A DNA stretch of 64,000 bases from Thermodesulfobacteriota bacterium (GCA_965116735.1 OZ220712.1:4866534-4930533), one strand, 5' to 3'. Positions 6,321-61,872 are shown, counted from the first letter of the stretch. Made by a program: numbers and translations. Notes: generated from the sequence alone by a model not told the origin.

Positions 6321-6376
6321 GTGCTCTTCCTTGCTGCCTGGGGAAGCCTGTATCCGCCCACGACGGGTGCGGGCAC

Positions 6377-6402
6377 GGGCGGGTTTGAAACCCGCCCCTA
6401 CA
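6377..6402. repeat. REP-like palindromic element, family 1 (gggcgggtttgaaacccgcccctaca)
   Basis: A perfect 10-bp stem (gggcgggttt/aaacccgccc) lies between the two transketolase subunit genes. Related copies occur at 15397-15422 (inverted), 26858-26883, 52623-52641 and 61873-61902. Confidence 0.75.
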
Positions 6403-11485: not shown

Positions 11486-11522
11486 GATTTGACGGTGTCC
11501 GCGCTCCTTTTCGCGTGTGGCC

Positions 11523-11726
11523 TCACTGCTTCTTCCGGACCACCTCGTAGCCCAGCTCGTCGATGCCGGACAGGATCTCCGCCAGGGCCGTCTCGTCCTC
11601 CACCCACGCGTGGCCGAGCCGGACCTTCACGGCGTAGTAGTAGCCGAAGGGACGCTGCGCCTTGCGGAACTTGAACAGTTCCCGGGCCAGGTTGACGGGA
11701 TTGGGCTTGTGCTCGTCCTTGCCCAT
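11523..11726 (-). CDS. small conserved-looking hypothetical protein (67 aa)
   Basis: The ORF has natural amino-acid composition (MGKDEHKPNPVNLARELFKFRKAQRPFGYYYAVK..). It sits 4 nt downstream of the HdrB-like gene and 37 nt upstream of sdhC. Confidence 0.4.
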   Translation of the reverse strand: MGKDEHKPNPVNLARELFKFRKAQRPFGYYYAVKVRLGHAWVEDETALAEILSGIDELGYEVVRKKQ

Positions 11727-11729
11727 CCT

Positions 11730-12608
11730 CTAAGTGAGCATGTCGATCTTGTCGTTGACCGCCTTGGTGGACACGATGTGCCGGCTGAGCTGCATCTCGT
11801 CGGGGTCGAACCCCAGCGCCAGCCCCACGAGCTGCGGCAGATGGATGATCGGCAAGTCGATCTTCTCACCCTTCTGGCTCTCGGCTCTCGGCTGGTTGCC
11901 GTCGAGGTTCAGATGGCACAGCGGACAGGGGGTCACCATGCAGTCGGCGCCGTTGCCCTTTGACTCGCCGGCGTGCTTGGACACCATGCCCAGCGACGCC
12001 TCCTCGTTGGCGGTGAGGATCGGGAAGCCGCAGCACTTGGTCTTGCCGCTGATGTCGACGTTCTCCGCCCCCAGGATGCGGGTGAGGTCCTCCAGGTAGG
12101 TCCGGCGGCCGCCCACCTCCTTGGTGGGCACCATGATGTTGCCGGGCCGGCGTATGAAGCAGCCGTAGAACGGCGAGACCTTGAGGCCGTTCAGGGGACG
12201 CTCGATCAGTGCCTGGAGCTTCTCGATGCCGTAGTCCTCGAACAGGACCCACAGCATGTGCGTGACCTCGGTGGTGCCCTGGTACGAAAGTCCTTCCTCG
12301 GCCAGGTACTCGCGGTTGATCTCTTCCCGGTACTCGGGGTCTTGCAGCCGGTGGTTGGCCTGGCTGAAGACGCCCTGGCAGGTGCTGCAGATGGTCATGA
12401 TGGGAAGCCCCATCTGCTCCGCCTTGGCGAAGGTCCGCGCGTTGATGGGGTCCGACAGTTGCGTCGGCATGCAGCCGGCTCCGGTGCACGACACGTCGGT
12501 CATCTCCTCGAGCTCGATGTCGAGCTTCTCGGCCACCTTGACGGCCGCGGAGTAGAGCTCGGGACAGCCGCCCTTGGCCACACATCCGGGATAGAACGCG
12601 TATTTCAC
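11730..12608 (-). CDS. HdrB-like CCG-domain protein (SdhE/TfrB C-terminal-like subunit)
   Basis: The 292-aa product has two CCG cysteine-rich domains (YPGCV..GGC..., FYGCF...KCCGF...TPCPLCHLN). Its GTG start at 12608 forms a GTGA overlap with the upstream Fe-S gene, and ggaggag is an RBS. Confidence 0.75.
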   Translation of the reverse strand: MKYAFYPGCVAKGGCPELYSAAVKVAEKLDIELEEMTDVSCTGAGCMPTQLSDPINARTFAKAEQMGLPIMTICSTCQGVFSQANHRLQDPEYREEINREYLAEEGLSYQGTTEVTHMLWVLFEDYGIEKLQALIERPLNGLKVSPFYGCFIRRPGNIMVPTKEVGGRRTYLEDLTRILGAENVDISGKTKCCGFPILTANEEASLGMVSKHAGESKGNGADCMVTPCPLCHLNLDGNQPRAESQKGEKIDLPIIHLPQLVGLALGFDPDEMQLSRHIVSTKAVNDKIDMLT

Positions 12609-13561
12609 TTGGACTCCTCCGCTTTCTCGATAATGCGCTTGATCTGGTCGGCCCCCGGGCGTTTCTCGTGACGGCCGGGCATCTTCCCGCGCCGCAGCGC
12701 GCGCACCGCGGTGGGCAGAAGCTTCATCAGTCCCCCCACGTTGGTCAACCCTTCGGTCTCCATGACCAGCTTGCGCTCGTCGAGCCAGCCGGTCTGCTTC
12801 ACCGAGTTGATGAAGCTCGCGTGGTGCCGGCCGACCTTCTCGTTCTTGATGCCTTCCTTGAAGGACACGTCGCGCATTTCCATGATCTTGGTGGAGGGAG
12901 TCAGCCTGCGCGGGCACTTGCCGTCGGCCTCGTAGCAGTGGACGCAATCCCAAAGCCCCTGGGGCTGCTCCACCACCTTCATGCGGGCGTCCATCTGGGC
13001 GCCGCTCTCCCGCGGGTCCATCACGAAGCGGTAGCTCTTGACCATGGCGCCGGGCCCCAGGAAGTCGAAGTTCACCGGCAGCACCGCGCACCCTTCGTCG
13101 CACAGGCCGCACTGGTAGCAGCTCATGGTCTTGCGCACGTCCGCCATGTCCTTCTCGGACACGATGTTCTCGGTGGGCGCGAACTCCTCGTCGGGCTCCA
13201 TCCAGGGCTTTACGGCGGCCATCTTGTCCCAGGTGAAGGCGTCCATGTCGAACACCAGGTCCTTGATCACCGCGATGTTGCGCACCGGGTCCAACTGGAC
13301 CTCCGGGGCCTTCTTGGTGACGTCGCCGATCCGGGTGGTGCAGGTGAACTGGGCCTTGTAGTTGATGCGCACCGCGCACTCGCCGCAGGTGCCCTGGCAG
13401 CAGGAGGCGCGGAAGGCCAGGGAGTCGTCCTGCTCGTCCCGGATCTTCTGGAGCCCGTCCAGGACCGTGGCGTCCTCGGGCAAGTCGACTTGGTAGGTGG
13501 CGTAGCCCGACTCGCCGCCGTTCTCCGGGTCCTTGCGATTGATCTTGTAGGTGACTTCCAT
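12605..13561 (-). CDS. fumarate reductase/succinate dehydrogenase-like iron-sulfur subunit with C-terminal extension
   Basis: 2Fe-2S motif CCQGTCGEC plus CYQCGLCDEGC and CVHCYEADGKCP cluster motifs. The 318-aa length is longer than canonical SdhB. Confidence 0.8.
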   Translation of the reverse strand: MEVTYKINRKDPENGGESGYATYQVDLPEDATVLDGLQKIRDEQDDSLAFRASCCQGTCGECAVRINYKAQFTCTTRIGDVTKKAPEVQLDPVRNIAVIKDLVFDMDAFTWDKMAAVKPWMEPDEEFAPTENIVSEKDMADVRKTMSCYQCGLCDEGCAVLPVNFDFLGPGAMVKSYRFVMDPRESGAQMDARMKVVEQPQGLWDCVHCYEADGKCPRRLTPSTKIMEMRDVSFKEGIKNEKVGRHHASFINSVKQTGWLDERKLVMETEGLTNVGGLMKLLPTAVRALRRGKMPGRHEKRPGADQIKRIIEKAEESK

Positions 13562-13627
13562 GAGTCCTCCTTGGCCGGCGCCTCCCGCCCTTGTCCGCGC
13601 GCGGACGTGCGGGCGTGGTGCCCGCCG

Positions 13628-15238
13628 TTACGCCGATACCGGCCGGGTATCGAGCTTCGGCGAGCCGTCCTGCGAGCGCACCACGGTGTGCGCCTTCCAG
13701 TTCGAATCGTCCTTCTCCGGATGGTCGCTTCTGAGATGGGCGCCGCGGCTCTCGGCGCGGCCCCGGGCCGCCAGCGCCGTGGCCTCCGCCAGCTTGAGGA
13801 GGTTCCCCAGCTCGACATGGCCGGCCAGCGCATAGTTGTAGATCCGCGACTTGTTGTTGACGCGAAGCGCGGCGTGGCGCTGTTGCAGCGCGCGGATCTT
13901 GTCCTGGGCCTCGGCCAGCCCCGCGTCCGTGCGGGTCACTCCGAGGTTGGCGCTCATCAGCTCGCCCAGTTCGCGATGGATGGTGCCCATGGTGTCGCCG
14001 GAGGAGCCTCCGGAGGTGATCTCCGCCAGCCGTTCGTTGTCCCGCGCGGCGGAGCCGGCCGCCTCCCTGGCGCCCGCCGCCTTGGCGTGACCGGCCGCGG
14101 CTTCGCCCACCCGCTTGCCGAACACCACCGCTTCGGTGAGGGTGTTGCCCGGAAGCCGTCCGGCGCCGTTGAGCCCGTTGTGGGCGCACTCGCCGACCGC
14201 GTAGAGCCCGGCCACCGAGGTCTCGCCGGCCGCGTTGGTCTCGATGCCGCCCATGGGCCGGTGCGCCACCGGCTGAACCGGAACCGGGTTCTGGGACGCG
14301 TCGATGCCGGCCATGGATTTGACCACCTCCAGCGCCCCGGGAAAGCGCGACGCCAGATCCGCTACCGGGCGGAGGTCGAGTGACACCGGCCCGCCGCCGT
14401 TGTGGCCTGCCTTGTGGACCGCCGCCGCGAGCTGCGCCCTGGAGAGTCCCGCGACATCCACCACCGTGTCGCCCGACTCGTTGACGAGTTGCGCGCCTTC
14501 GCTCAGGGCCGCCTCGCTGACGAGCGCCGTCCGGTCCGCGCTGTACACCGTGGGATGGAACTGCACCATCTCCAGGTCCACCAGCCCGACGCCCAGGTCG
14601 TAGGCCAGCATGAGGCCGTCGCCGGTGGTGCCCACGGCCGAGGTGCACGGACGGTACAACTGGGTGGCGCCGCCGGTGGCGAGGACCACCGCCCCGGCCG
14701 CGAAGGTTTCGAGCTGGCCGCTCCGGTGCCCCAGGGCCACCGCTCCGGTGCACGCCCCGCCGTCCTGGATCAGAGACGTGACGAACCATTCGCTGAAACA
14801 GGGGATGTCCTCTCTCTGGAATTGCTCGTGCAGCACATGGAGCACCATGTGTCCGGTGCGGTCGTCGGCGTAGGCCGCGCGGCTGACGCTGCTGGAGCCC
14901 AGCGCGCGTCGGTCGATACGGCCGTCGGCATCGCGGTTGAAGGGCACGCCGACGCGCTCGAGCCAGATCACCTCCCGGGCCGCGTCCGAGGCCAGGATGT
15001 TCACGGCTTCGGTGTCGCACAGGCCGTCGCCGGCGCTTCTGATATCCTGGGCGAATTTTTCCGCGGAGTCGTCGCTGCCCAGGGGCGCATTCAGGCCGCC
15101 CGGCGACAGCGCCGAGTTGGTTCGCAGCGGATGGACCTTGCTCAGCACCGCCACCGACGCCCCGGCGCGCTTGGCGGCAATGGCCGCGCGCAGACCGGAT
15201 GCGCCTCCACCGATAACGAGAACGTCAAATTGCGGCAC
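13628..15238 (-). CDS. fumarate reductase/succinate dehydrogenase/L-aspartate-oxidase-family flavoprotein (non-covalent FAD)
   Basis: DVLVIGGGASGLRAA, HRPMGG and ESRGAHLRSDHP motifs. It lacks the His used for covalent FAD attachment (LRTNSALSPGG). Confidence 0.8.
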   Translation of the reverse strand: MPQFDVLVIGGGASGLRAAIAAKRAGASVAVLSKVHPLRTNSALSPGGLNAPLGSDDSAEKFAQDIRSAGDGLCDTEAVNILASDAAREVIWLERVGVPFNRDADGRIDRRALGSSSVSRAAYADDRTGHMVLHVLHEQFQREDIPCFSEWFVTSLIQDGGACTGAVALGHRSGQLETFAAGAVVLATGGATQLYRPCTSAVGTTGDGLMLAYDLGVGLVDLEMVQFHPTVYSADRTALVSEAALSEGAQLVNESGDTVVDVAGLSRAQLAAAVHKAGHNGGGPVSLDLRPVADLASRFPGALEVVKSMAGIDASQNPVPVQPVAHRPMGGIETNAAGETSVAGLYAVGECAHNGLNGAGRLPGNTLTEAVVFGKRVGEAAAGHAKAAGAREAAGSAARDNERLAEITSGGSSGDTMGTIHRELGELMSANLGVTRTDAGLAEAQDKIRALQQRHAALRVNNKSRIYNYALAGHVELGNLLKLAEATALAARGRAESRGAHLRSDHPEKDDSNWKAHTVVRSQDGSPKLDTRPVSA

Positions 15239-15396
15239 TGGGGATCCCCTTTTCTTTGGCGAGAGGAACGCAAATTCCTTGCGTTTTCACGGGGTATAGC
15301 AAAACCCGCTCGGACGCGTCAAGGTGGGTTTTTCAAGCGTGATGCACGCCTCTCCGACGGGTGACAACCAGGGTGTGACGGAGTCCGATCCGGCGA

Positions 15397-15422
15397 TGTA
15401 GGGGCGGGTTTCAAACCCGCCC
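15397..15422. repeat. REP-like element family 1, inverted-orientation copy
   Basis: tgtaggggcgggtttcaaacccgccc is the exact reverse complement of the 6377 copy. It lies in the divergent region between the sdh-like cluster and udg. Confidence 0.75.
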
Positions 15423-15475
15423 GCGTCGCGTCCACGCACCGCTGTCGCGGCCTTCGCGGCTTCCGGGCCGGTGGC

Positions 15476-16198
15476 GTGCAGGCGGCCGATGCGCTATGCC
15501 GGAAGGCCATGGAACGGGACTCCCTGGCGCGCGTCAACCGGGCGGCAATCCGCTGCCGAAAGTGCCCCCGGCTGGTGGCTTGGCGGGCCGAAACCGCCGC
15601 CAATCCGCCGCGCCGCTATCATGGCTACAAGTACTGGGGCCGGCCGCTTCCCGGCTTCGGCGACGGCGACGCGAGGCTCCTGATCGTGGGTCTGGCGCCC
15701 GCCGCTCACGGCGGCAACCGCACCGGCCGGATGTTCACCGGAGACCGCAGCGGCGACTGGCTCTACCGCGCGCTCTACGAGCACGGCTTCGCCAACCAGG
15801 CCGAGTCCGTGGACCGCGACGACGGCCTGGAACTCACCGACTGCTACATCTCCGCCGCGGTCCGCTGCGCGCCCCCCGCCAACAAGCCCGCCCGCGACGA
15901 GTTCGACAACTGTCGCGGCTACCTGGTCCGCGACCTCCGGCTGCTCCCGCGTCTACGGGTGGTTCTCGCGCTGGGCAAGATCGCCTTCGACTCCTACCTC
16001 AAGGCTGCGGCCGAGGCAGGGCAACCGATCCCCCGGCCCCGCCCGCAATTCGGCCACGGCATCCGCCACGACCTCGACAACGGCTTGACCCTTCTGGGCT
16101 CCTACCACCCCAGCCAGCAGAACACCTTCACCGGCAAGCTCACTGTGCCCATGTTCCACGACATCTTTCGCACGGCCCGGGAACTTCTGGACGGCTAG
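15476..16198 (+). CDS. uracil-DNA glycosylase, family 4/5 (UdgB-like)
   Basis: Cys-rich N-terminus (CRKCPRL) and GLAPAAHGGNRTGRMFTGD motif A. HPS..N motif B is near the C-terminus. Confidence 0.75.
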   Translation: MQAADALCRKAMERDSLARVNRAAIRCRKCPRLVAWRAETAANPPRRYHGYKYWGRPLPGFGDGDARLLIVGLAPAAHGGNRTGRMFTGDRSGDWLYRALYEHGFANQAESVDRDDGLELTDCYISAAVRCAPPANKPARDEFDNCRGYLVRDLRLLPRLRVVLALGKIAFDSYLKAAAEAGQPIPRPRPQFGHGIRHDLDNGLTLLGSYHPSQQNTFTGKLTVPMFHDIFRTARELLDG

Positions 16199-16298
16199 GG
16201 TACGATGTCGGGCTCGACCGGAGGATGCAGGAGAGCAAAAAGGGAGGCCGAAGGTGTCGTTTGCGGCGAATATGGCATTTATGTTAGATGAGTAAGCA

Positions 16299-16769
16299 TT
16301 GTCGTTGCCAATGGGAAATCGAGTCATGAAGGACGGAGAGACTAGGTTCGCGAGCGGCCGGGATGCAGTTCTTGCCGACCAGATCGGCAGGAAACTGGCA
16401 GAGTTGCCGGATGGGACTGAGCCGGTTCCGGTTCGATTTGGTGCGGCCGGCGAGGAAACGGTCGAGATTCCTGCCCAAGCGCTACGGCTTCTGCGGGAGA
16501 TTCTGGACCAGATGGCGCGTGGCAATACAGTTGCGTTGACACCGGTTCAGACCGAGTTGACCACACGGCAGGCGGCCGATCTCCTGCAGGTTTCGAGGAC
16601 GTTCCTGGTACGGCTGCTCGACGAGGGACGAATCCCATGCCGTAAGGTCGGCTCACATCGGCGTGTGCGGACCGAAGACATTCTCGCCTATCGTCGGGAT
16701 ACGGAATCTCGTCGTCGTGATGCGCTGGACGAGTTGACTGCCCAGGATCAGAGACTCGGCTTACAATAG
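16299..16769 (+). CDS. HTH_17 / excisionase-family DNA-binding protein (putative antitoxin)
   Basis: The C-terminal LTTRQAADLLQVSRTFLVRLLDEGRIPCRKVGSHRRV is a MerR/excisionase-type HTH. It lies 3 nt upstream of the PIN gene, in the low-GC island. Confidence 0.65.
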   Translation: MSLPMGNRVMKDGETRFASGRDAVLADQIGRKLAELPDGTEPVPVRFGAAGEETVEIPAQALRLLREILDQMARGNTVALTPVQTELTTRQAADLLQVSRTFLVRLLDEGRIPCRKVGSHRRVRTEDILAYRRDTESRRRDALDELTAQDQRLGLQ

Positions 16770-16772
16770 CCG

Positions 16773-17342
16773 ATGAACCGATTGACGGCGTTTCTCGACG
16801 CCAACGTCCTGTATCCCGCTGGCCTTCGAGACTTTCTCCTGCGGCTGGCGGATCAATACTTGTACCAACCGCTTTGGAGCGTCGCGATTCATGAAGAATG
16901 GATCGCCAACCTTCTCGCCGACCGGCCCGATCTCACAGTCGACAGGCTGGAGCGTACCCGTACAATCATGGACGAGCACTTTCCCGAGGCGGTCGTTTCC
17001 GGTTACGAAACTCTCATCGCGGAACTCGACCTCCCTGACGTCCGCGACCGTCATGTTCTGGCGGCGGCGATCCACGGTTGCGCCAGCGTAATCGTGACCT
17101 TCAACCTGCGGGATTTTCCCGCAGGCCGACTGGCGCCACATGGGCTAGACGCACAACATCCCGATGACTTCATTGGCCGTCTTCTCGAATCTCAGCCCGA
17201 AGCGGTTCTTGCTGCCGTCCGCGGCCATCGTGCCGCATTGAGGAACCCTCCGCGGTCATCGATAGAACATCTGGCTGCGCTTGAGGGACTGGGGCTCGGT
17301 CGAACGGCCTCAGTTCTCTGGAATCACAAGGATGTCATCTAG
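16773..17342 (+). CDS. PIN-domain protein (putative VapC-like toxin)
   Basis: Acidic PIN residues occur in LDANVLY, DRHVLAAAI and TFNLRDF. The gene is paired with the upstream HTH gene. Confidence 0.7.
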   Translation: MNRLTAFLDANVLYPAGLRDFLLRLADQYLYQPLWSVAIHEEWIANLLADRPDLTVDRLERTRTIMDEHFPEAVVSGYETLIAELDLPDVRDRHVLAAAIHGCASVIVTFNLRDFPAGRLAPHGLDAQHPDDFIGRLLESQPEAVLAAVRGHRAALRNPPRSSIEHLAALEGLGLGRTASVLWNHKDVI

Positions 17343-18531
17343 CGTTCAATCAGCGGACAGTGATGCAGGCGTTTCCTGCGTCTTGGACGTCTACCCCGAA
17401 GACACGTTGGATTACCTTGAAGAGGCTGTTTCTGCGGGACGTCATTTCTCATATGCGATTCCCTACGTTGCCGGCCAAACGATCAAGAAGCAACTCTGCC
17501 TGATTCAGGTGATCGGGTACGAATACATCGAGCGCCGGGTGTGGGGCTCACTTTACGCTTGTATCGCCGATTCTGGGCGCAGAGTTACAACGGCCCAACG
17601 TCATCTCACGCTGACCAACTTCGTCCGGGTCTCGGACGTTTCCTACAAGCAGTTGATGGAAAATATCCCGGAGAGCTCTGCTGAACACCTTCTTCGCGAC
17701 TTCGGGGTTGATTTCCGAACCCTTCCAGCGAAAACGGGTCAACAGGTATGGCGTGCTCTCAAAGACCTCAGCGGAAAGAGGGCTGAATTGGAGGAACTCG
17801 AAGTTCACACCCGCCGAATCAATCTCAATCCAGCCACGGAGCGGGCAGAAACGTTGGCCGCCGAGAAGGATGCCACTGGCCTTAGTCTAGAAATCGCCGG
17901 ATTCAAGAGAAGCAATATCCTTAGGAGTTGGGCACCTCAAGCCGGCAGGATTGGCGATTCCTTTCTTCGTGGATTGCCGCAGTACCGGACCTATGAGGAC
18001 AGCGCTATTGCACGCGATCAGCATGCCTTTCCGGGATGGGAGCTTATCCAGCACGAAGTCACCGGCATCGCCGAATTCAGCGATGACCAAAATAGGAGAC
18101 TGACCATTATCAATGCTAATCGAAATGACCTCGAAAAGGCACTCGGTGTCGACCTGATATATTTTCATCGTGGATTTGAGGCATTCACGTTTGTTCAGTA
18201 CAAGATGATGGACCGAAAAACCAAAGATGGTGAACCTTATCACAACCCAAGGTCACGCCAGGACTACAAAGAGCTCCAGAGAATGCGTCGCCTATGGCAC
18301 GGCGTCAGGAAGTCCAACGTCGGGGACTCGGAGCAGGACTATCGTCTTGGTCTTTGTCCGATCTTTTTCAAACTCTGTAGGCGAATTGTCCTTGAGCCGG
18401 ACGAAGGAGGGATCATCAGCGGGGCCTATGTTCCGCTGGACCAGTGGCAGAAACTGGTGATTTCGCCGAAAATCAAAGGCCCCACGGGGGGCGTCGTCTC
18501 GGGCATTTCAATCTCGAAGGCCGGTACCTGA
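17332..18531 (+). CDS. hypothetical protein with PD-(D/E)xK-like motif; probable frameshifted 3' end
   Basis: The 399-aa ORF overlaps the PIN gene stop by 11 nt, and GC is about 52%. The C-terminal region GVDLIYFHRGFEAFTFVQYK resembles a restriction-endonuclease-fold core. The reading frame appears to continue in a second frame (18444-18692) after a G6 run. Confidence 0.5.
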   Translation: MSSSVQSADSDAGVSCVLDVYPEDTLDYLEEAVSAGRHFSYAIPYVAGQTIKKQLCLIQVIGYEYIERRVWGSLYACIADSGRRVTTAQRHLTLTNFVRVSDVSYKQLMENIPESSAEHLLRDFGVDFRTLPAKTGQQVWRALKDLSGKRAELEELEVHTRRINLNPATERAETLAAEKDATGLSLEIAGFKRSNILRSWAPQAGRIGDSFLRGLPQYRTYEDSAIARDQHAFPGWELIQHEVTGIAEFSDDQNRRLTIINANRNDLEKALGVDLIYFHRGFEAFTFVQYKMMDRKTKDGEPYHNPRSRQDYKELQRMRRLWHGVRKSNVGDSEQDYRLGLCPIFFKLCRRIVLEPDEGGIISGAYVPLDQWQKLVISPKIKGPTGGVVSGISISKAGT

Positions 18532-18692
18532 CGACGACGGCATTCGTCGAACTCGTGCAACGGGGCTTGGTCGGCACAAAGACTCTAGACACCCAATTTG
18601 TAGCGGACATTGTGGAAAGACTGGTTGCCGAGGACCACTCCGTGATTTACGCAGTAGAACAACTAAGGAGCAGAGCCACGCGACGAAGTTGA
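18444..18692 (+). other. frame-shifted continuation (or overlapping small ORF) of the 399-aa hypothetical gene
   Basis: The frame has protein-like composition (FNLEGRYLTTTAFVELVQRGLVGTKTLDTQFVADIVERLVAEDHSVIYAVEQL). Adding one G to the G6 run at 18486-18491 would fuse it to the upstream ORF. Confidence 0.35.
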
Positions 18693-18797
18693 GGCACCCA
18701 CCGGCCGGGCGAAGTCGCGCGGATCCTTCGCCATGGGACGATGGGCGGGCTTCTGCTTCTTCTCGGGCTTTGGCATCGGCTCTCCTCTCATTGCTTC

Positions 18798-19127
18798 TTA
18801 GAGGGTGCCCTTGAAAATTTCGAGAGCTACTGCCTTTAGGACATCCATGGTCCAATTCCCTCCGTGCTGCGCGATTCGATCCTTCACCCTTGTCCACAGC
18901 CGATCATCGCGAACCGAATCAAGGAAGTCGTGGCCTTCGTTCGTAATCCGGAATGCGGTTTCTTTGACGGCGTGTAGAAGGCCCGCATCACACAGAAGTT
19001 GAACATGCTGCCAGCGTTTCTGGGCGACGGCGTCCATCCCAAGGGTGAGTCGTTCCACCACGAGGAAGGACGGTTCCGCCTCGTATTCAAGGAGGATTGT
19101 CCTCATGTAGTCAAGGTCGCGCTTCAT
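18798..19127 (-). CDS. DUF2513-like hypothetical protein
   Basis: The 109-aa product (MKRDLDYMRTILLEYEAE...NEGHDFLDSVRDDRLWTRVKDRI) lies 60 nt downstream of the XRE-type gene in the low-GC island. Confidence 0.45.
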   Translation of the reverse strand: MKRDLDYMRTILLEYEAEPSFLVVERLTLGMDAVAQKRWQHVQLLCDAGLLHAVKETAFRITNEGHDFLDSVRDDRLWTRVKDRIAQHGGNWTMDVLKAVALEIFKGTL

Positions 19128-19186
19128 ATCGTCATATCTGTCATGTCAGTGACTGCCTCAAGATCGTGCCATGAACCGCGCGCGGC

Positions 19187-19585
19187 TCAGATCAGATCAT
19201 CAAGCTCAACATCTAACGCTGTGGCGATAGAGGAGAGTGTTTTCGCCGACCCGGTTCGTTTGCCCGTCTCAATTTGCGAAAGGTACACGTGATTGATGCC
19301 TGCGGCCTCAGCGAGCTGCTTCTGGGTCAGGCGACGATAGTCCCGGTATACCCTGATGGGATTTTCCCCCGCCAACAGACGATCCACCACCGTGGCGGGA
19401 AACGACTCGCTTCCGGCAGACTTCGCGAGGTCGTAGAGTTCTTCGTCCGTCATTGCGCCTTCGTCGTCCATGGAAGCTAGTCGTTTGTACTCTCCCCACG
19501 GGATCACTGCGTATGCCGGCTTCCCGTTCTTGTCGACAATGACTTGGGGCTTGCTCACGGGGTTCTCCCTGGGCGCGTGTAGCAT
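19187..19585 (-). CDS. XRE-family HTH protein with N-terminal antitoxin-like domain
   Basis: The N-terminus QVIVDKNGKPAYAVIPWGEYKRL is antitoxin-like. The C-terminus LTQKQLAEAAGINHVYLSQIETGKR is an XRE HTH. Confidence 0.65.
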   Translation of the reverse strand: MLHAPRENPVSKPQVIVDKNGKPAYAVIPWGEYKRLASMDDEGAMTDEELYDLAKSAGSESFPATVVDRLLAGENPIRVYRDYRRLTQKQLAEAAGINHVYLSQIETGKRTGSAKTLSSIATALDVELDDLI

Positions 19586-19735
19586 TCAATCATCGAAATC
19601 GCGAGTGCTATACTTCATTTAGCGGGTTATATAGCAAAACGCTTTCATCGCGTCGAGCCGGTTCCAAGGCGGCGGGGTTGACTTGCTGTAGCCAATCGAC
19701 TACGCATTAGGCTTCATCCGTACTGGAGAGACGAA

Positions 19736-20020
19736 ATGTCCGCAAAAGAACACAAGGCGAGCGACTACCTCAAGACGCCCGAGGATATCGTTGCCTATCT
19801 GAACGCCGTGATCGAAGAGATGGGCGATGATCCGCGTCTGCTGATGAGGGCGTTTCGTAACGTGGCCGAGGCGCAGGGCGGCGTCTCCGCGCTCGCGCGT
19901 GAAGCCAAGCTGGACCGAGTGGCGCTGTCCCGTGCGCTCTCGGGCCAGAGAAATCCGCGGCTCGACACGCTCGCGAAGGTCTCCGCCGCGTACGGCGTCA
20001 AGTTGCGGTTTTCAACATGA
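19736..20020 (+). CDS. HigA-family addiction-module antidote protein (orphan)
   Basis: The 94-aa product (KTPEDIVAYLNAVIEE...PRLLMRAFRNVAEAQGGVSALAREAKLDRVALSRALSG) has the typical antidote fold. No cognate killer gene lies upstream. Confidence 0.6.
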   Translation: MSAKEHKASDYLKTPEDIVAYLNAVIEEMGDDPRLLMRAFRNVAEAQGGVSALAREAKLDRVALSRALSGQRNPRLDTLAKVSAAYGVKLRFST

Positions 20021-20118
20021 GGGTGAGTCGGTTTCTCGTCAACGACCGAAACGCTTGCGGTATGCACAATAGAGTTGCAATAAACCGTAACAGACGAATC
20101 CAAAGAGGAGGACTTGAT

Positions 20119-20412
20119 ATGTCCATCGTCAGATTGATCCACGTCAACGTCGACCCCGGCCAAGCCGCGGAGGCGGAGCGCATCTGGAAGGAGGATTGCG
20201 GCCCGCGGATGCTCGCTCAGCAGGGCTGCAAGTCCGAGCAATTGCTGAAGTGCATCGATTCCCCGGGGGAATACATCTCCTACGCCGAGTGGGAGAGTCA
20301 GGAAGACATCGACCGCTATCGCGACAGCGAGGACCACAAGGCGATCCAGACACATGCGCGCGCGCTTCAGGGCGCGCGGGCCGTGGTCAAGCGGTACGAT
20401 CCCATCGACTGA
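20119..20412 (+). CDS. antibiotic-biosynthesis-monooxygenase (ABM) domain protein
   Basis: The 97-aa product (MSIVRLIHVNVDPGQ...YISYAEWESQEDIDRYRDSEDHK) has the ABM fold pattern. A strong RBS aggagga lies 8 nt upstream. Confidence 0.7.
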   Translation: MSIVRLIHVNVDPGQAAEAERIWKEDCGPRMLAQQGCKSEQLLKCIDSPGEYISYAEWESQEDIDRYRDSEDHKAIQTHARALQGARAVVKRYDPID

Positions 20413-20456
20413 GTCTTTCTCGGAGGCAGGGATACTGAGTCATCGCTACCTGGTTC

Positions 20457-23378
20457 GTGACGGGGTGGCGGCGAGGAGCATTTCCCATGGCGCGTGAAGT
20501 GCAGGATTACCGGGAGACCGAGGCCGAGCTCCGCAAGCGGGTGGAGGGCGAGGTCCGGTTCGACCACTACTCGCGGCTGCTCTACGCCACCGACGCGTCC
20601 ATCTACCAGATGGAGCCCGTGGGCGTGGTCATTCCGCGGCACAAGGGCGATGTCCAGGCGGTCATGGAGGTGGCCAACCGGCACCGGGTGCCGGTGCTGG
20701 CCCGAGGCGGCGGCACTTCGCTGGCGGGCCAGACCGTGGGCCACGCCATCGTCATGGACTTCTCCAAGTACATGAACCAGGTGCTGGAGACGAACCGGGA
20801 GGAGCTCTGGTGCCGGGTCCAGCCCGGGCTCGTGCAGGACGCGCTGAACGCCCATGCCGCGCCCATGGGGATGCTCTTCGGTCCGGACACCTCCACCTCC
20901 AACCGCGCCACCATCGGCGGCATGATCGGCAACAACTCCGCCGGCGCCCATTCCGTCGTCTACGGCAAGACCCTGGACCACGTGCTGGAGTTGACGGTGC
21001 TCCTGGCGGACGGCAGCGAGGCGGTGCTGACGGACCTCTCGGCGGACGGGCTCGCAGCCAGGCAGGGAGGGAAGGGGCTGGAAAACCGCATCTACCAGCA
21101 GCTCCCGCCGCTGGTGGAATCCGCCGGCAGGCTCATCGCGGAGCGCTACCCCAAGCTCATGCGGAGGGTGTCGGGCTACAACCTCGACGAGTTCACCAAG
21201 GACCAGCCGTTCAACCTCTCGCGCTTGATCGTGGGCTCCGAGGGCACCCTGGCGTGCGTGGTGGAAGCCAAGATGCGGCTGGTGCCCAAGCCGAAGTTCA
21301 CCGCGCTGGACGTCATCCACTTCCACGACCTCCAGGACGCGCTGGGGGTGTCGGAAACCATCCTCGCCACCGACCCCTACGCCATGGAGCTGACCGACAA
21401 GCCCATCCTGGACCTGGCGCGCAACAACATCGAGCAGTCCAAGCGGCTGGGCTTCGTGCAGGGCGACCCCGACGCCATCCTGATGGTGGAGTACGACGGC
21501 GACACCCTCGAGGAGGTCCGCGACAAGGTCGACAAGCTGGAGGTGATCCGCCGGCGCGAGCACATGGGCTATGCCGCCTCCCTCGCCTACGAGCCGCGGG
21601 AGGTGCAGGCGATCTGGGGCGTGCGCAAGGCCGGCCTGGGGCTCCTGCTGGGCGTCAAGGGAGAGAAGAAGCCCATCGCTTTCGTCGAGGACACCGCGGT
21701 GGACCCGGTCAAGCTACCCGAGTTCATCAAGCGTTTCCGCGGCATCCTCAGCAGCCACGGCGTCCGCGCCGGCTACTACGGCCACTGCTCCGTGGGCTGC
21801 ATGCACATCCGCCCCTTCATCAACCTCAAGGAAGCCGGCGAGGTGGAGAAGATGACGCAGATCTCATGCGAGATCTCGGACCTGGTGATGGAGTTCGGCG
21901 GCGCCATGTCCGGCGAGCACGGCGACGGACTGGCCCGGAGCCACCTGAACGAGAAGCTCTTCGGCCCCGAGCTGTACCAGGAGTTCCGCAAGGTCAAGCG
22001 GCTGTTCGACCCGGACAACCTGCTCAACCCCGGCAAGATCGTGGACGCGCCGGCCATGACCGATTCGCTCCGCTACGGCACTTCCTACAAGACCTGGCAG
22101 CCCGACACCATGCTGGACTTCAGCGACCAGGGCGGCTTCGTGGCCGCGGTGGAGATGTGCAACGGCACCGGCGCCTGCCGCAAGACCCTGGGCGGCACCA
22201 TGTGCCCGTCGTACATGGCCACGATGGAGGAGGAGCACTCCACCCGCGGGCGCGCCACCGCGTTCCGGGCCGTGCTCTCCGGCAAGGTGCCCCGTTCGGA
22301 GTTCACCGGCGAGCGGCTCCACGAGGTGCTGGACCTCTGCCTCGAGTGCAAGGGCTGCAAGGCCGAGTGCCCGTCCAACGTGGACATGGCCAAGCTCAAG
22401 TACGAGTTCCTGCACCACTACCAGCAGGTCCACGGCGTCTCGCTTCGGAGCCGCCTGTTCGGCCGCATCGGCGCCCTGAGCCGCTGGGGCTCGCTGCTGG
22501 CGCCGGTCGCGAACCGGATCAACGGCAGCTTCGCCAACCGCTGGCTTCTGGACCGCTTCCTGGGTATTGACCGCAGGCGCCCGCTGCCGAGCTTCGCGCG
22601 CAACAACTTCGAGACATGGTGGAACAAGCGCGATGCCGCGGGAAGCGGCGCCCGCGGCTCGGTGATCCTGTTCCACGACACCTTCAACACCTACAACACG
22701 CCCGACGTGGCGGTGGCGGCCACCCGCCTGCTGGAGTATCTCGGCTACCGGGTGATGACCGTGCCGCGGCGCTGCTGCGGCCGCCCGATGATCTCCAAGG
22801 GCATGCTTCAGGACGCCAAGGACCACGCCGCCTGGAATGTCGCCCGGCTGCTGCCCCACGTGGAGCAGGGAGTGCGGGTGGTGGGCCTGGAGCCCTCCTG
22901 CATCCTGACGCTCCGGGACGAGTACCCCGACCTTCTGCGCAACGAGCCGTCGCGCATGGTGGCGGGCCACACGCTGCTCATCGAGGAGTTGTTGATGCGG
23001 GACGAGGCGGCGGGCGCGTTGAAGAACGGCGACGCCGCCAGGCCGCCGGTGGTGCTGCACGGCCACTGCCACCAGAAGGCGCTGGTGGGCATGGCGCCCA
23101 CGGTCTCGGTGCTGCGGGAAGCGGGCCACGACGTGCGCGAGGTGGATTCCGGCTGCTGCGGCATGGCCGGCTCCTTCGGCTTCGAGAAGGAGCACTACGA
23201 CGTGTCCGTGGCCATCGCCAACCGCCGCCTGGTGCCGGCGGTGGAGGCCGCGCCCGAGGACGCGCGCGTGGTGGCGTCGGGAATCTCCTGCCGGCAGCAG
23301 ATCGAGCACCTCACCGGGCGCCGGGCGCTCCATCCGGTGGAGGTGCTGTGGGAAGACGTCCGGGAAGCCGAGGGCTGA
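20457..23378 (+). CDS. FAD-linked oxidase fused to Fe-S/CCG domains (YdiJ-like dehydrogenase)
   Basis: N-terminal FAD-binding PCMH domain (RGGGTSLAGQ), a C-terminal 4Fe-4S dicluster motif (CxxCxxC...CP) and CCG domains. The ORF is 973 aa; the likely start is MAREVQ at about 20487. Confidence 0.8.
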   Translation: MTGWRRGAFPMAREVQDYRETEAELRKRVEGEVRFDHYSRLLYATDASIYQMEPVGVVIPRHKGDVQAVMEVANRHRVPVLARGGGTSLAGQTVGHAIVMDFSKYMNQVLETNREELWCRVQPGLVQDALNAHAAPMGMLFGPDTSTSNRATIGGMIGNNSAGAHSVVYGKTLDHVLELTVLLADGSEAVLTDLSADGLAARQGGKGLENRIYQQLPPLVESAGRLIAERYPKLMRRVSGYNLDEFTKDQPFNLSRLIVGSEGTLACVVEAKMRLVPKPKFTALDVIHFHDLQDALGVSETILATDPYAMELTDKPILDLARNNIEQSKRLGFVQGDPDAILMVEYDGDTLEEVRDKVDKLEVIRRREHMGYAASLAYEPREVQAIWGVRKAGLGLLLGVKGEKKPIAFVEDTAVDPVKLPEFIKRFRGILSSHGVRAGYYGHCSVGCMHIRPFINLKEAGEVEKMTQISCEISDLVMEFGGAMSGEHGDGLARSHLNEKLFGPELYQEFRKVKRLFDPDNLLNPGKIVDAPAMTDSLRYGTSYKTWQPDTMLDFSDQGGFVAAVEMCNGTGACRKTLGGTMCPSYMATMEEEHSTRGRATAFRAVLSGKVPRSEFTGERLHEVLDLCLECKGCKAECPSNVDMAKLKYEFLHHYQQVHGVSLRSRLFGRIGALSRWGSLLAPVANRINGSFANRWLLDRFLGIDRRRPLPSFARNNFETWWNKRDAAGSGARGSVILFHDTFNTYNTPDVAVAATRLLEYLGYRVMTVPRRCCGRPMISKGMLQDAKDHAAWNVARLLPHVEQGVRVVGLEPSCILTLRDEYPDLLRNEPSRMVAGHTLLIEELLMRDEAAGALKNGDAARPPVVLHGHCHQKALVGMAPTVSVLREAGHDVREVDSGCCGMAGSFGFEKEHYDVSVAIANRRLVPAVEAAPEDARVVASGISCRQQIEHLTGRRALHPVEVLWEDVREAEG

Positions 23379-23385
23379 GGCGGTC

Positions 23386-24609
23386 ATGGGCAGGATCGCG
23401 GCGTTACGCTGTCCGCAGTGCGGCTGGGAGGCGGTAACCGACGACACCTTCGCGTGCGGCTCCTGCGGGGCCGTGCTGGAGGTCCGCATGGACCTCGGAC
23501 ATCTCACCCGCTCTGACGTACGCATCATCCGCTCCAGCGCCGACAAAACCCTGTGGCGCTGGTTCGACTTCTTTCCAGTCAAGAGCCGCGGCTCGGTGGT
23601 GTCCCTGGGCGAGGGCTATACGCCGCTCATGCGTTGCCGGCGCCTGGGCGAGCACCTGGGGATGGAACGGCTCTACGTCAAGAACGACACGCTCCTGCCC
23701 ACGGGCTCCCTCAAGGACCGCAGTAACAGCGTGGGCATCTCCCGCGCGGTGGAGCTGGGCTTCGACACCGTGGCGGTGCCGTCCACCGGCAACGCCGCCG
23801 CGTCGGTGGCCGCCTACGCCGCGGCCGCGGGTTTACGCAGCGTCGTCATGGTGCCGGCCGGCACCGATGCGGCCAAGGTGACCCAGGCCTATGCCTGCGG
23901 CGCCGAGGTGGTGACGGTGGAGGGAAGTCTCGACGAGATCGGGCCGTTCTACCGGGAGGCGGTCAAGGAGTTCGGCTGGTACGATTGTCTGTCCACCAAC
24001 CCGTACCGCAACGAGGGCAAGAAGTCCTACGCCTTCGAGTTGTTCGATCAACTGGAAGAGCACGTGCCCAATTGGATCATCCACCCTACCGCCGGCGGGG
24101 CCGGCCTCGTGGCCATGTGGAAGGGCTACCAGGAGTTGCAAGGCCTCGGCTGGGTGCACCGGTTTCCCAGGCTGGTGGCGGCCCAGAGCGAGGCCGCGGC
24201 CCCCATCACGGCGGCGTTGAACACCAACAGCGCCACGGTGGAGCCGGTGGCAGCGGGCGCCACGGTGGCGGAGAGTATCCGGGTGGGCAACCCGCATGCG
24301 CTGGGGCTGCGCGCCCTGCGCGCGGTGCGGGCCAGCAACGGCACCGGCGTGGCGCTGACGGACGGTGAGACCCTCGAGGCCCGGGACCTGCTGGGGCGTT
24401 TGGCCGGAGTGTTCGCCGAGCCCTCGGCCGCGGTGTCGCTGGCCGCGGCGGCGCGGCTGCGCCGCGAGGGCGTTATCCGCGCCGACGACATGGTCGTGTG
24501 CAACATCACCGGCCACGGCCTCAAGCAGGTCGCCAGCGTCACTATTCCACCGGAGCAACTGCAACCGGTTGAGCCGAGCCTGGACGCCTTGAAGGCGCGG
24601 CTCGGGTGA
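23386..24609 (+). CDS. threonine synthase-like PLP enzyme with N-terminal zinc ribbon
   Basis: N-terminal CPQCGW...CGSCG zinc ribbon. The PLP lysine lies in TGSLKDR, and the fold is TrpB-like. Confidence 0.8.
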   Translation: MGRIAALRCPQCGWEAVTDDTFACGSCGAVLEVRMDLGHLTRSDVRIIRSSADKTLWRWFDFFPVKSRGSVVSLGEGYTPLMRCRRLGEHLGMERLYVKNDTLLPTGSLKDRSNSVGISRAVELGFDTVAVPSTGNAAASVAAYAAAAGLRSVVMVPAGTDAAKVTQAYACGAEVVTVEGSLDEIGPFYREAVKEFGWYDCLSTNPYRNEGKKSYAFELFDQLEEHVPNWIIHPTAGGAGLVAMWKGYQELQGLGWVHRFPRLVAAQSEAAAPITAALNTNSATVEPVAAGATVAESIRVGNPHALGLRALRAVRASNGTGVALTDGETLEARDLLGRLAGVFAEPSAAVSLAAAARLRREGVIRADDMVVCNITGHGLKQVASVTIPPEQLQPVEPSLDALKARLG

Positions 24610-24774
24610 ACGAGGACACGGTTCGGAAATGACTTGGCGCCTTGGACAAGACATTTCCGTTCGCCCTGAGCCCTTCGACGAGGCTCAGGACAGGCGTAGC
24701 GAAGCGAAGTCGAAGAGCGCCGTTTCCAGCTCACCTCATGCGGGATCAGGAATGTCGGAAAGCGAAGGACAGCC

Positions 24775-25815
24775 ATGAAGTTCGGATACTACCTGCTCAA
24801 CACCTACGTTCCCGAGCTGGACGGAGATTCGCGCGAACTCTATGCCCGCTGGCTGGAGCAGATCGACGCCGCCGAGGAAATGGGCTTCGACAGCCTCTGG
24901 GTTACCGAGCACCACTTCCGGCTGTTCGGCGGCATGATGCCCAGTCCGCAGATGCTTCTGTCGGCGGCGTCGCAACGCACCCGGCGGCTCCAACTCGGCT
25001 CGGCGGTCTCGCTGGTGCCCATGCACCACCCGCTGCAGATCGCTGAGGACTACGCCATGCTGGACCTCCTGTCCGGCGGGCGTCTGCTCTTCGGCGCCGG
25101 CCGGGGCATGAGCCCCCACGAGTACGAGGTGTATGGACACGACTGGCCTACCGCGCAGCCGCGGCTGGTGGAGGCACTGGACGTCATCCGCATGGCCTGG
25201 ACCGAGGAGACCGTGGAGTGGGACGGGGAGTTCTTCAGCTACCACGGCATGACCGTCCGGCCCAGGCCGCACCAGCAGCCCCATCCGCCCATCTACGTGC
25301 CCGCCAACCGGGACCTCGACAACTTCCGCATGATCGGAAGCCACGGCTACCACCTCATGACCCTGCCGTGGATCGGCAGCAACCAGGAGCAGCGTCCGCG
25401 CATCGAGGTCTACCTGGAAAGCCTGCGGGAAGCGGGCTACTCCGAGGAAGACCACGACGTCTTCGTCATGTACCCGATCTACGTGGGCGAGGACGACGAC
25501 CGGGCTCGCGCCGAGGTGGAGGACGCCTGGCACCGTTGGCGCGAGTTCGCCCTCGACGAGGTCCGCCTCGACCCCGCCCGCGCGCCCATGGTGGACAGGA
25601 TCTACGGGCGCCTGGCCTACGACATGATGGTGCAGGACAACCGCGGCGTCTTCGGCGGCCCCGACACCTGCATCCAGCACCTCAAGGTCATCATCGATGT
25701 CGTCGGCCCCAAACACATCGGACTGTGCTTCCACTTCGGCGGCCTCAAGCAGGACAAGGTCCTCGCCTCCATGGAGCGCTTCAGCCGCCACGTGGCGCCG
25801 GCGTTCGAGGTCTAG
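24775..25815 (+). CDS. LLM-class (luciferase-like) flavin/F420-dependent oxidoreductase
   Basis: The 346-aa product has FDSLWVTEHH near the N-terminus and a TIM-barrel LLM pattern. Confidence 0.8.
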   Translation: MKFGYYLLNTYVPELDGDSRELYARWLEQIDAAEEMGFDSLWVTEHHFRLFGGMMPSPQMLLSAASQRTRRLQLGSAVSLVPMHHPLQIAEDYAMLDLLSGGRLLFGAGRGMSPHEYEVYGHDWPTAQPRLVEALDVIRMAWTEETVEWDGEFFSYHGMTVRPRPHQQPHPPIYVPANRDLDNFRMIGSHGYHLMTLPWIGSNQEQRPRIEVYLESLREAGYSEEDHDVFVMYPIYVGEDDDRARAEVEDAWHRWREFALDEVRLDPARAPMVDRIYGRLAYDMMVQDNRGVFGGPDTCIQHLKVIIDVVGPKHIGLCFHFGGLKQDKVLASMERFSRHVAPAFEV

Positions 25816-25868
25816 CCCGCGCGCACCGCCATCCCGGGGAGGCAACCCCGTGAAGGTAGTCTGTGCTT

Positions 25869-26726: not shown

Positions 26727-26857
26727 GTCTGCTCCTTTGAACGCACATGAATGCATCGCGCGGGCGACTCGCGAAGCCAGAAATACTCGAAAAGCAGGTT
26801 GCTTGTCCAGGACAGCAAGGTCTGCTCGGACGGGTCTGCCGTGCTGGTTCGAGGCAC

Positions 26858-26883
26858 GGGCCGGTTGGAAACCCGCCCCTACA
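26858..26883. repeat. REP-like element family 1, variant copy
   Basis: gggccggttggaaacccgcccctaca lies in the divergent ppk2/argS intergenic region. Confidence 0.65.
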
Positions 26884-26974
26884 CCTGATTGTCCATGCCT
26901 CCCTGCTCAGGCGCGGGGCTTTGTGTTAGACTCGGCGGGATGATCTCGACGGGAAGCATGGGACGGGTTGCGTC

Positions 26975-61823: not shown

Positions 61824-61872
61824 CCATTGAACCGCGGCCGCGTTGCTCATCCTCGCGTGGCGTCGGCTACAC

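Follow-up and report, generated by a model that had tools for sequence, protein, structure and literature searches.

MspJI, which like AspBHI and LpnPI joins an SRA-like reader to a PD-(D/E)XK nuclease, is a protein of ~450 aa with a D...QxK catalytic motif. More widely, proteins that fuse a PUA-superfamily reader with an HNH or PD-(D/E)XK nuclease are known or predicted to be modification-dependent restriction enzymes (PMC6765204, PMC7641849, PMC7897488). The EVE enzymes tested among them are EVE-HNH proteins (VcaM4I and TspA15I), while EVE-PD(D/E)XK and YTH-like-PD(D/E)XK fusions have been predicted (PMC6765204, PMC7897488, PMC7641849). BREX loci have also been reported to carry auxiliary PD-(D/E)XK nucleases, among them Shedu-type ones (PMC12839542). 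Here, we compared these systems with a variable region in a 64-kb window (the whole stretch of 64,000 nucleotides that was analysed), which we consider likely to be a cassette hotspot mosaic, with a toxin-antitoxin pair joined to a type IV-like nuclease, orphan regulators and an ABM gene. The region is an ordinary accessory islet, and the nuclease family is its one new part. The features discussed below are as follows.

16199..20458, no strand: variable low-GC region of ~4.3 kb between udg (end 16198) and the FAD/Fe-S dehydrogenase gene (start about 20457-20487)
16242..18697, + strand: mobile cassette of 2.45 kb, with genes for a putative HTH_17-PIN toxin-antitoxin pair and, after it, a predicted EVE-like/PD-(D/E)xK nuclease, delimited by recurrence and shared ends
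16255..16295, + strand: conserved upstream sequence GTGTCGTTTGCGGCGAATATGGCATTTATG..., a candidate promoter or operator
16326..16769, + strand: HTH_17 protein of the excisionase type, 147 aa, a putative antitoxin (Pfam HTH_17 5.7e-13; TIGR01764 1.5e-12)
16773..17342, + strand: putative PIN-domain toxin of 189 aa, VapC-like and RSP_2648-type (Pfam PIN_3 30 bits, cutoff 27)
17332..18692, + strand: frameshifted gene for a predicted modification-dependent nuclease of 453 aa (no family match to its 399-aa ORF; intact homologues)
18480..18483, + strand: frameshift site, a run of four C
18798..19127, - strand: DUF2513 small winged-helix-like protein of 109 aa (Pfam DUF2513 1.7e-14; phrog_585 1.2e-17)
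19187..19585, - strand: antitoxin-like HTH protein of the XRE family, 132 aa, extended at the N-terminus (HTH_3 3.5e-12; phrog_7241 1.1e-31 over the full length)
19736..20020, + strand: orphan HigA-type antidote of the HI1420 family, 94 aa (TIGR02684 63.6 bits, cutoff 53.7; Pfam dnstrm_HI1420 5e-16)
20119..20412, + strand: ABM-domain protein of 97 aa (Pfam ABM 6e-14)

The stretch 16199-20118 had a GC content of 56.3%, compared with 67.4% in the rest of the window, and was the lowest in GC of all 3.9-kb stretches of the window (~3.7 SD below the mean), with a minimum of 50% at 18000-18400. The original prediction of a fall from about 67% to about 50-55% was right as to the drop, but its lower range was slightly low as an average. 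The codon-usage profile that it had proposed as a check agreed with a distinct island: GC3 was 0.57-0.68 in the island genes and 0.77 in higA, compared with 0.88 in udg and 0.95 in the downstream dehydrogenase gene. Likewise, the predicted limits of 16199-20118 fit the low-GC stretch, but the variable region extends past the ABM gene to ~20458, because this gene is itself present or absent among relatives. All domain calls in the predicted gene list were reproduced by family searches, and, as had been claimed, ORF and family searches found no integrase or transposase among the island ORFs. We considered a classical integrative genomic island and rejected it, since the region has no integrase or recombinase, no tRNA-adjacent insertion and no flanking direct repeats; no tRNA was found in the entire 64-kb window and no convincing flanking repeats around the island.

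We next turned to ~23 related Candidatus Binatia loci spanning the udg-dehydrogenase junction. Homology to 23 Binatia loci ends at 16176-16204 and restarts between ~19186 and 20472 according to the cassettes shared; in relatives with none of the window's cassettes, it restarts at 20459-20472. The junction was empty in some relatives and in others held ABM only, a complete HigB-HigA pair, DUF433-DUF5615 or the XRE gene, the last with a ParE-like ORF next to it in three loci. The udg gene directly abuts the dehydrogenase gene in L011, L026 and L027, and the gap is only ~300 bp in L017, so the comparison of the udg-ABM junction that had been suggested found the island missing from relatives. Together with the other toxin-antitoxin cassettes at this site and the recurrence of the HTH_17-PIN-nuclease unit in five other contexts, this upholds the prediction of an acquired, accessory island. 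Judged from these alignments, the udg-dehydrogenase junction in Candidatus Binatia is a recombination and insertion hotspot that collects small selfish or defence cassettes, and the island is not a single acquired block but a mosaic whose parts move independently.

The first part of this mosaic would be a mobile cassette in which the nuclease gene is joined to genes for an HTH_17 antitoxin and for a toxin that is a VapC-like PIN RNase. The cassette was found in five contexts besides the window, and its gene order, seen also in L019, L164 and L165, is kept over 76-94% nucleotide identity in six contexts. The copy in L001 (8892-11367) is 94% identical and lies in an unrelated context; L164, L165 and L166/L167, like L001, carry the cassette in other contexts, and its ends are sharp and shared: L001, L166 and L167 have the left end at 16242 in common with the window, and L001 also has the right end at 18697. 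Neighbouring genes differ among the contexts outside the window. L019 has the cassette at the identical position, with an intact nuclease gene and with a deletion that leaves only the first four codons of DUF2513. This recurrence with shared ends marks the cassette, at the sequence level, as mobile; no recombinase, terminal repeats or target duplication was found at it. The upstream sequence at 16255..16295 is conserved at the left end of the cassette in the window, L001 and L166 and is recognisable in L164 and L165, and may serve as a promoter or operator.

The HTH_17 and PIN genes resemble an ordinary type II toxin-antitoxin pair of the VapBC-like kind and may act as one. A small DNA-binding gene lies directly 5' of a co-oriented PIN gene, with a spacer of 3 nt, and the pair recurs in six Binatia-type and three plasmid contexts. 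Model NF046100 matched the PIN protein at 142 bits (1.7e-41), under its equivalog cutoff of 170, so that the protein is related to the family without being a certified member of it; VapC50_C is recorded on PIN homologues. The PIN family is widespread on plasmids, with matches to 296 plasmid records, and all three records inspected carried a two-gene HTH+PIN arrangement without the third gene. The window pair differs from such pairs in carrying this third gene, the nuclease. Both genes of the pair are under purifying selection (dN/dS 0.09-0.14 for HTH_17, which is intact in 6/6 cassette contexts, and 0.15-0.28 for PIN).

The third gene had been described as encoding a 399-aa unknown protein overlapping PIN. 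The overlap and the lack of a family match stand, but the length does not, as the true gene encodes 453 aa and is broken. In alignments, the intact copies in L001 and L019 have five C where the window has four, and an 82-aa ORF at 18444-18692 is the C-terminus of the large gene in a different frame. Our best reading is that the window gene has been either inactivated or mis-sequenced. The protein as sequenced lacks the conserved last ~66 residues, and is for that reason probably inactive. A sequencing or assembly error in the homopolymer, which would leave the gene intact in the organism and this cassette copy working, is a tenable if somewhat doubtful account. Adding one C restores an open 453-codon frame without stops, the 70 residues past the shift are 96% identical to the intact allele P0001, and the corrected gene has a dN/dS of 0.19-0.29, similar to PIN; moreover, related records resemble long-read assemblies, some with 2-3x coverage by their contig names. 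However, this is the sole uncompensated coding indel in ~18 kb aligned to three close relatives, and systematic homopolymer errors would be expected in runs longer than four to five C. In addition, the gene has been damaged independently in three further copies of the cassette, where it is shifted in frame near codon 49, interrupted by a TGA at codon 224 or cut short after residue ~85, and loss of the gene thus recurs.

The nuclease gene is broken in four of the six cassette contexts while the HTH_17-PIN pair is intact, which argues that the two functions are separable. This bears on the alternative that the three genes form one integrated toxin-antitoxin-coupled restriction module, in which the pair would regulate, guard or back up the nuclease, for instance if an attack on the nuclease or the antitoxin freed PIN to act as an abortive-infection arm. 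Such a module would fit the gene order kept across contexts, the shared cassette ends and the 11-nt overlap of the PIN stop with the nuclease start in the window, L001, L019 and L166. We nevertheless consider it unlikely, given that the two genes lie ~70 nt apart without overlap in L164 and L165, that the inspected plasmid pairs lack the third gene and that ~80 other loci carry the nuclease family without the HTH_17-PIN pair. As most family members do not lie beside such a pair, the linkage in this cassette appears lineage-specific.

On our best reading of the structural model, the large protein adds an unannotated family to the modification-dependent (type IV) restriction nucleases. This family comprises 1,933 cluster representatives of uniform length and gave no sequence match in Pfam, NCBIfam, PHROG, PADLOC or PDB, and no sequence-level link to EVE, YTH or any named nuclease family. 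The original prediction of an undescribed system thus holds for the family, but the architecture is of a known kind (a PUA-superfamily reader with PD-(D/E)xK) and the window copy is frameshifted. In the model, an EVE/YTH-like reader (residues 14-130) is followed by a helical linker (~131-235), a PD-(D/E)xK core (~236-350) and a conserved C-terminal domain (~351-445). The best structural matches of the N-terminal domain are EVE domains, two of them solved with modified DNA and one within a restriction enzyme, consistent with a PUA-superfamily reader of modified bases. Matches to the full model further include RecU, Hjc, I-Ssp6803I and type II restriction enzymes. Residues D274, Q289, Y290 and K291 are invariant and lie on consecutive strands as in PD-(D/E)xK enzymes, and the predicted nuclease domain appears catalytically competent; the low model confidence of the active-site loops 222-229 and 264-268 counts against our reading. 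The nuclease core is conserved, and the protein varies most in the reader domain, which has no invariant residues among 36 sequences.

In the mechanism that we propose, incoming DNA would be recognised through a modified base by the fast-evolving N-terminal domain and then cut by the PD-(D/E)xK domain (D274, Q289 and K291), possibly in defence against phages, without requiring a partner methyltransferase or NTPase. None of the island genes encodes either of these, and the methyltransferases encoded close to distant relatives are those of BREX or type IIG systems. Family members are patchily distributed, are carried on plasmids and are embedded in BREX-type, Gabija and SIR2-HerA loci; their neighbours include BrxC with PglXI, SIR2-HerA, GajA-GajB (Gabija), type IIG RM and PDC-S15.

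Like the PUA-reader restriction endonucleases, the protein unites an N-terminal EVE/YTH-like fold and a single nuclease domain in one polypeptide, lacks a methyltransferase or NTPase partner, has a fast-evolving reader and is located in defence islands. It differs from them in having no sequence match to Pfam EVE or to solved members, in its predicted PD-(D/E)xK domain where the tested EVE enzymes have HNH, and in its ~100-residue helical linker (with invariant E178/D180) and conserved ~95-residue C-terminal domain, neither of which has a named counterpart. With MspJI, AspBHI and LpnPI, it shares its size, the order of N-terminal reader and then nuclease, and the replacement of E by Q in the catalytic motif; comparison by sequence revealed no similarity to any PDB chain, and we do not assign it to the MspJI family. 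Shedu (SduA, DUF4263) also places a variable sensor before a PD-(D/E)xK nuclease, and the PADLOC models include Shedu. In a scan of 36 family members, Pfam (E<=1) gave no match, DUF4263 included, and PADLOC gave none to any model, its Shedu models at E<=0.1 included; membership of Shedu was rejected.

PUA-like domains often bind RNA, and binding of a free modified nucleotide has been reported for one of them (bioRxiv 10.64898/2026.01.15.699771); both are points against our reading. The EVE-like domain could instead sense modified RNA or a free modified nucleotide from infection and switch on the nuclease as an abortive-infection effector, and m6-dAMP is the reported trigger of a defence module that contains a PUA domain (bioRxiv 10.64898/2026.01.15.699771). 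However, the EVE matches described above and the direct fusion of reader and nuclease without a signalling domain, as in known modification-dependent restriction enzymes (PMC6765204), make this quite improbable. It is scarcely credible that the large protein has a housekeeping role in repair or recombination (as a RecU/Hjc-like resolvase) and that the island is unrelated to defence: most related genomes lack the gene, both at this site and at others, and it is patchy, plasmid-borne and found within defence loci, is repeatedly inactivated and is marked as foreign by its low GC.

Returning to the mosaic, its second part would be the XRE regulator with the DUF2513 gene, homologues of which stand alone elsewhere. 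The XRE gene is present in L014, L019, L021, L023 and L024, and no toxin partner for it was found in the window; its neighbour in L024 is a convergently oriented gene for a ParE-like toxin, confirmed by Pfam, and L014 and L023 have homologous ORFs at that position. The third part would be a HigA antidote that remained after loss of its HigB toxin. The window protein passes the family cutoff for the antidote of HigB-HigA (HI1419/HI1420) modules, but the HigB/Gp49-type toxin gene that such a module has directly 5' of HigA is not present in the window. The description of HigA as an orphan was confirmed by relatives that retain the toxin at the locus: a 111-aa Gp49/HigB-type ORF lies directly 5' of HigA in L007, L008, L012, L016, L020 and L022 (the L012 copy matches Pfam Gp49), and the homology of the window to the HigB-bearing loci starts only 14 nt before the HigA start codon. 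HigA and the divergent XRE gene are only 150 bp apart. The fourth part would be the ABM gene, which is absent at the junction in L007, L011, L014, L017, L022, L024, L026 and L027 and has native-like codon usage (GC3 0.85).

The original prediction described a drop in GC between udg, which ends at 16198, and the ABM gene, and this was borne out by the composition of the window. A sliding profile gave a GC fraction of 0.50-0.60 at approximately 16200-20400 versus 0.66-0.74 on both flanks, and 16199-20118 (56.3% GC, compared with 67.4% in the remaining window) is the minimum among all 3.9-kb stretches of the window, ~3.7 SD under the mean. Third-position GC is 0.57-0.68 in the island genes and 0.77 in the HigA gene, compared with 0.88 in udg and 0.95 in the downstream dehydrogenase gene. 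ORFs were listed and searched against the HMM libraries of Pfam, NCBIfam, PHROGs, and PADLOC, and all of the earlier domain calls in the island were reproduced.

Gene content of the udg-dehydrogenase junction in the window
16326-16769, plus strand, HTH_17 putative antitoxin gene (HMM libraries)
16773-17342, plus strand, PIN_3 putative toxin gene, nearest to the RSP_2648-type PIN family, though under that model's cutoff
from 17332, plus strand, large ORF lacking a family match
18798-19127, minus strand, DUF2513 gene (HMM libraries)
19187-19585, minus strand, XRE helix-turn-helix protein gene (HMM libraries)
19736-20020, HI1420-type antidote (HigA) gene (HMM libraries)
20119-20412, ABM gene (HMM libraries)

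Neither an integrase nor a transposase was found in the island by the ORF listing and HMM libraries, as had been predicted, and no tRNA gene lies anywhere in the 64-kb window. A search for repeats flanking the island gave nothing convincing, Rfam yielded zero matches in the island, and a scan for promoter- and terminator-like sites there was no higher than shuffled expectation.

The UDG protein retrieved approximately 23 Candidatus Binatia loci (79-94% identity), all in metagenome-assembled genomes, which places the window in that lineage. We compared the junction in these loci by aligning window positions 10000-28000 to each. The flanks are collinear between the window and these loci; similarity ends at 16176-16204 and, in relatives sharing no cassette, picks up again at 20459-20472, just 5' of the dehydrogenase gene. 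This resumption point varies with the cassettes that each relative has in common with the window.

Content of the udg-dehydrogenase junction in Binatia relatives
L011, L026, L027: empty
L017, L018: ~300 bp
L006, L013, L025, L028: ABM gene only
L007, L008, L012, L016, L020, L022: complete Gp49/HigB-type toxin plus HigA, with or without ABM
L014, L021, L023, L024: XRE gene
L010: DUF433-DUF5615 pair plus an XRE remnant
L019: nearly as in the window

Because junction content varies between otherwise collinear genomes, the island is accessory, and the prediction of an accessory addiction or defence islet was supported by this comparison, in which the contents differ and are missing altogether in some relatives. 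The related proposal of a horizontally acquired island holds as regards its accessory nature but not as regards a single acquired block: the junction is a cassette hotspot and the island a mosaic, with the ABM gene, formerly taken as its downstream end, counted in the variable part. The Binatia udg junction thus forms a natural series across syntenic genomes, from empty sites through complete toxin-antitoxin (TA) pairs to orphan antitoxins or a defence gene, and shows turnover of small TA and defence cassettes at a single hotspot without any recombinase. At the same hotspot, L025 carries a ~5-kb insertion (11127-16291) between ABM and the dehydrogenase gene. In L009, synteny with the window stops at udg and no dehydrogenase block occurs within 10 kb beyond position 10690, pointing to a rearrangement there.

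Two features locate the window's version within this series. The XRE-HigA junction of the window is common to L019 and L023, and homology to HigB-carrying genomes starts just 14 nt before the HigA start; therefore, HigB was lost in a common ancestor of the three. The first four DUF2513 codons remain in L019, fused to sequence downstream of the nuclease gene, so a deletion occurred in L019 while the window kept the older XRE-DUF2513 arrangement. XRE and DUF2513 were rejected as a conserved pair, given that the DUF2513 homologues in L168 and L169 have no accompanying XRE gene. A ParE-like toxin ORF adjoins the XRE gene convergently, not as an operon, in L014 (10774-11464), L023 (10875-11677), and L024 (10769-11465); a Pfam ParE_toxin match was obtained for the L024 copy and none for the L014 copy, and the assignment is confirmed only in L024. 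This convergent orientation is unusual for a TA pair. The N-terminus of the XRE protein shows a faint Phd/YefM-like match. In L015, a repeat-like sequence (10626-11033), whose spurious translations contain WIPAFAGMT, occupies the HigB position, and the HigA match begins at residue 12. Overall, the island is largely ordinary or decayed, comprising a standard PIN TA pair, two toxin-less antitoxin-like regulators, DUF2513, and a variable ABM gene. A caution for the window is that the island consists mostly of remnants and that, as sequenced, the gene of greatest interest is disrupted.

That gene, the large ORF, belongs with the HTH_17-PIN pair to a mobile three-gene cassette at 16242-18697, which is 94% identical to L001 8892-11367, where the neighbourhood is unrelated to that of the window and a transposase fragment follows. 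The same gene order occurs in three further settings, namely in L164 and L165, adjoining an HhH-GPD glycosylase gene, and in L166/L167, adjoining an nSTAND NTPase gene. The window, L001, and L166 have the left end (16242) in common; the right end (18697) lies five bases beyond the stop codon, and neither terminal repeats nor target duplications were seen at these ends. HTH_17 and PIN are intact in all cassette copies (dN/dS of 0.09-0.14 and 0.15-0.28, respectively), whereas only L001 and L019 have an undamaged nuclease gene. The other copies have independent lesions: a frameshift at approximately codon 385 in the window, a frameshift at approximately codon 49 in L164, a TGA at codon 224 in L165, and homology that stops after approximately residue 85 in L166/L167. 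Part of this pattern is possibly error, since some of the assemblies appear low-coverage.

For the window copy, the lesion could be traced to a single base. Homologues of the large gene encode 420-470 aa, and the last 70 residues of the best homologue (P0001; 453 aa, 93% identical) match an 82-aa ORF at 18444-18692 in a different frame. Nucleotide alignment revealed CCCC at 18480-18483 of the window versus CCCCC in L001 and L019, and adding one C restores an open frame of 453 codons. The corrected gene has a dN/dS of 0.19-0.29 relative to intact copies, resembling PIN, and the missing C is the sole uncompensated coding indel across ~18 kb of alignment with three close relatives. The frameshift may be either a very recent mutation or a sequencing error; phase variation is unlikely given so short a run (four to five C).

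The island had been proposed as the most likely site of something undescribed, and the unannotated nuclease family is the part that merits this attention. A profile built from 36 members retrieved 1,933 cluster representatives (1,021 at E <= 1e-30) with near full-length matches. The large protein itself had no match in Pfam, NCBIfam, PHROGs, or PADLOC, searches of 36-46 family members against Pfam and PADLOC gave zero matches, and a sequence profile search of the PDB hit nothing but ribosomal protein L4, by chance. All ten plasmid copies are labelled "hypothetical protein", no homologue was found in 50,697 phage records, and the contig encoding the protein P0041 was not found on record. The PD-(D/E)xK nucleases matched by the full model were RecU (6.9), Hjc (6.2), I-Ssp6803I (6.0), and D212 (5.9); several type II enzymes scored below these. 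Residues E222, D229, N263, E268, G272, D274, Y277, Q289, Y290, K291, R338, and K347 are invariant in the family alignment; in the model, D274 lies ahead of one strand and Q289-x-K291 on the following strand, which is a PD-(D/E)xK arrangement with Q replacing E. MspJI has the same variant. Variability is greatest in the predicted N-terminal EVE/YTH-like reader domain (mean majority fraction of 0.34), compared with a conserved nuclease core (0.55) and a conserved C-terminal domain (0.53), a pattern that fits a specificity domain.

Neighbours of the family gene, named with PADLOC and Pfam in approximately 80 metagenome loci, form a defence-island signature. Recurrent neighbours were BrxC (DUF6079) with a PglXI methyltransferase, a SIR2-HerA pair, GajA plus GajB, a type IIG restriction-methylase, and PDC-S15 (FRG domain). 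NTPases of the nSTAND and KAP types were also seen next to family members, as was a UvrD helicase accompanied by an SNF2 helicase and an MmeI-type enzyme. BREX-type loci (L109, L144, L147, L153, and L160) have the order BrxC, SIR2, HerA, family gene, PglXI. At several loci, a small membrane-like protein sits between the family gene and PglXI; in L147, L133, L138, and L145, a protein of ~220 aa that matches no family and has a hydrophobic N-terminus lies in this position. In seven metagenome loci (L094, L095, L106, L107, L155, L156, and L158), the family gene immediately precedes genes for a GajA-like ATPase and a GajB-like UvrD helicase, with a gap of roughly 60-180 bp. On the Dinoroseobacter plasmid pDSHI06 (L170 5752-10321), it lies ~40 bp 5' of a GajA-like/UvrD-like pair and also precedes a RES-Xre TA pair. 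The three genes may constitute a Gabija variant. On Paracoccus aminophilus pAMI8 (L171 5515-8507), a family member shares 4 nt with the start of a gene for a DUF6119 protein (Pfam, 1.6e-151), and S8 peptidase and ATP-binding protein genes lie alongside; this may be another partnership.

Enzymes that join a PUA-superfamily reader (SRA, EVE) to an HNH or PD-(D/E)XK nuclease are established or predicted modification-dependent restriction enzymes, and MspJI, AspBHI, and LpnPI are of the SRA-PD-(D/E)XK type. The nuclease family resembles these in fold, motif, and context but falls outside the MspJI family, Pfam EVE, and Shedu by all tests run, and neither its helical linker, with invariant E178/D180, nor its conserved C-terminal domain has a named counterpart. 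EVE-HNH enzymes include TspA15I and VcaM4I (PMC6765204, PMC7897488), EVE- and YTH-like-PD(D/E)XK proteins are predicted to be type IV enzymes whose readers evolve fast and which occur in defence settings (PMC7641849), and the auxiliary effectors of BREX loci are most often PD-(D/E)XK nucleases (PMC12839542). Alternatively, the EVE-like domain might sense a nucleotide signal, as a PUA module was recently reported to sense free m6-dAMP (bioRxiv 10.64898/2026.01.15.699771). We read the family as a new addition to the modification-dependent restriction enzymes, a function that we infer; its window copy rides with a TA pair and is broken as sequenced. If this is correct and the EVE-like reader is new, a nameless family of this size, with members embedded in BREX-type loci or adjoining Gabija and SIR2-HerA systems, would close a gap in defence-system annotation and be a testable addition to an enzyme class employed for mapping epigenetic marks.

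An integrated, self-stabilising defence module seems improbable to us. In such a module, the nuclease would provide modification-dependent restriction, the translationally coupled TA pair would addict the host to the cassette or serve as a backup abortive arm, and the repeated nuclease knock-outs would reflect self-damage once the host or a new methyltransferase modifies its own DNA. The PIN protein has matches in 296 plasmid records, an ordinary two-gene HTH+PIN pair in all three inspected, and ~80 other nuclease-family loci lack the pair; the linkage is therefore lineage-specific.

A GC-rich short palindrome, GGGGCGGGTTTCAAACCCGCCC, is intergenic at window positions 6364-6402, 15397-15425, and 61843-61902, occurs also in the unrelated contig L001 (18720-18758 and 19302-19334), and looks like a REP-type repeat common to the lineage.
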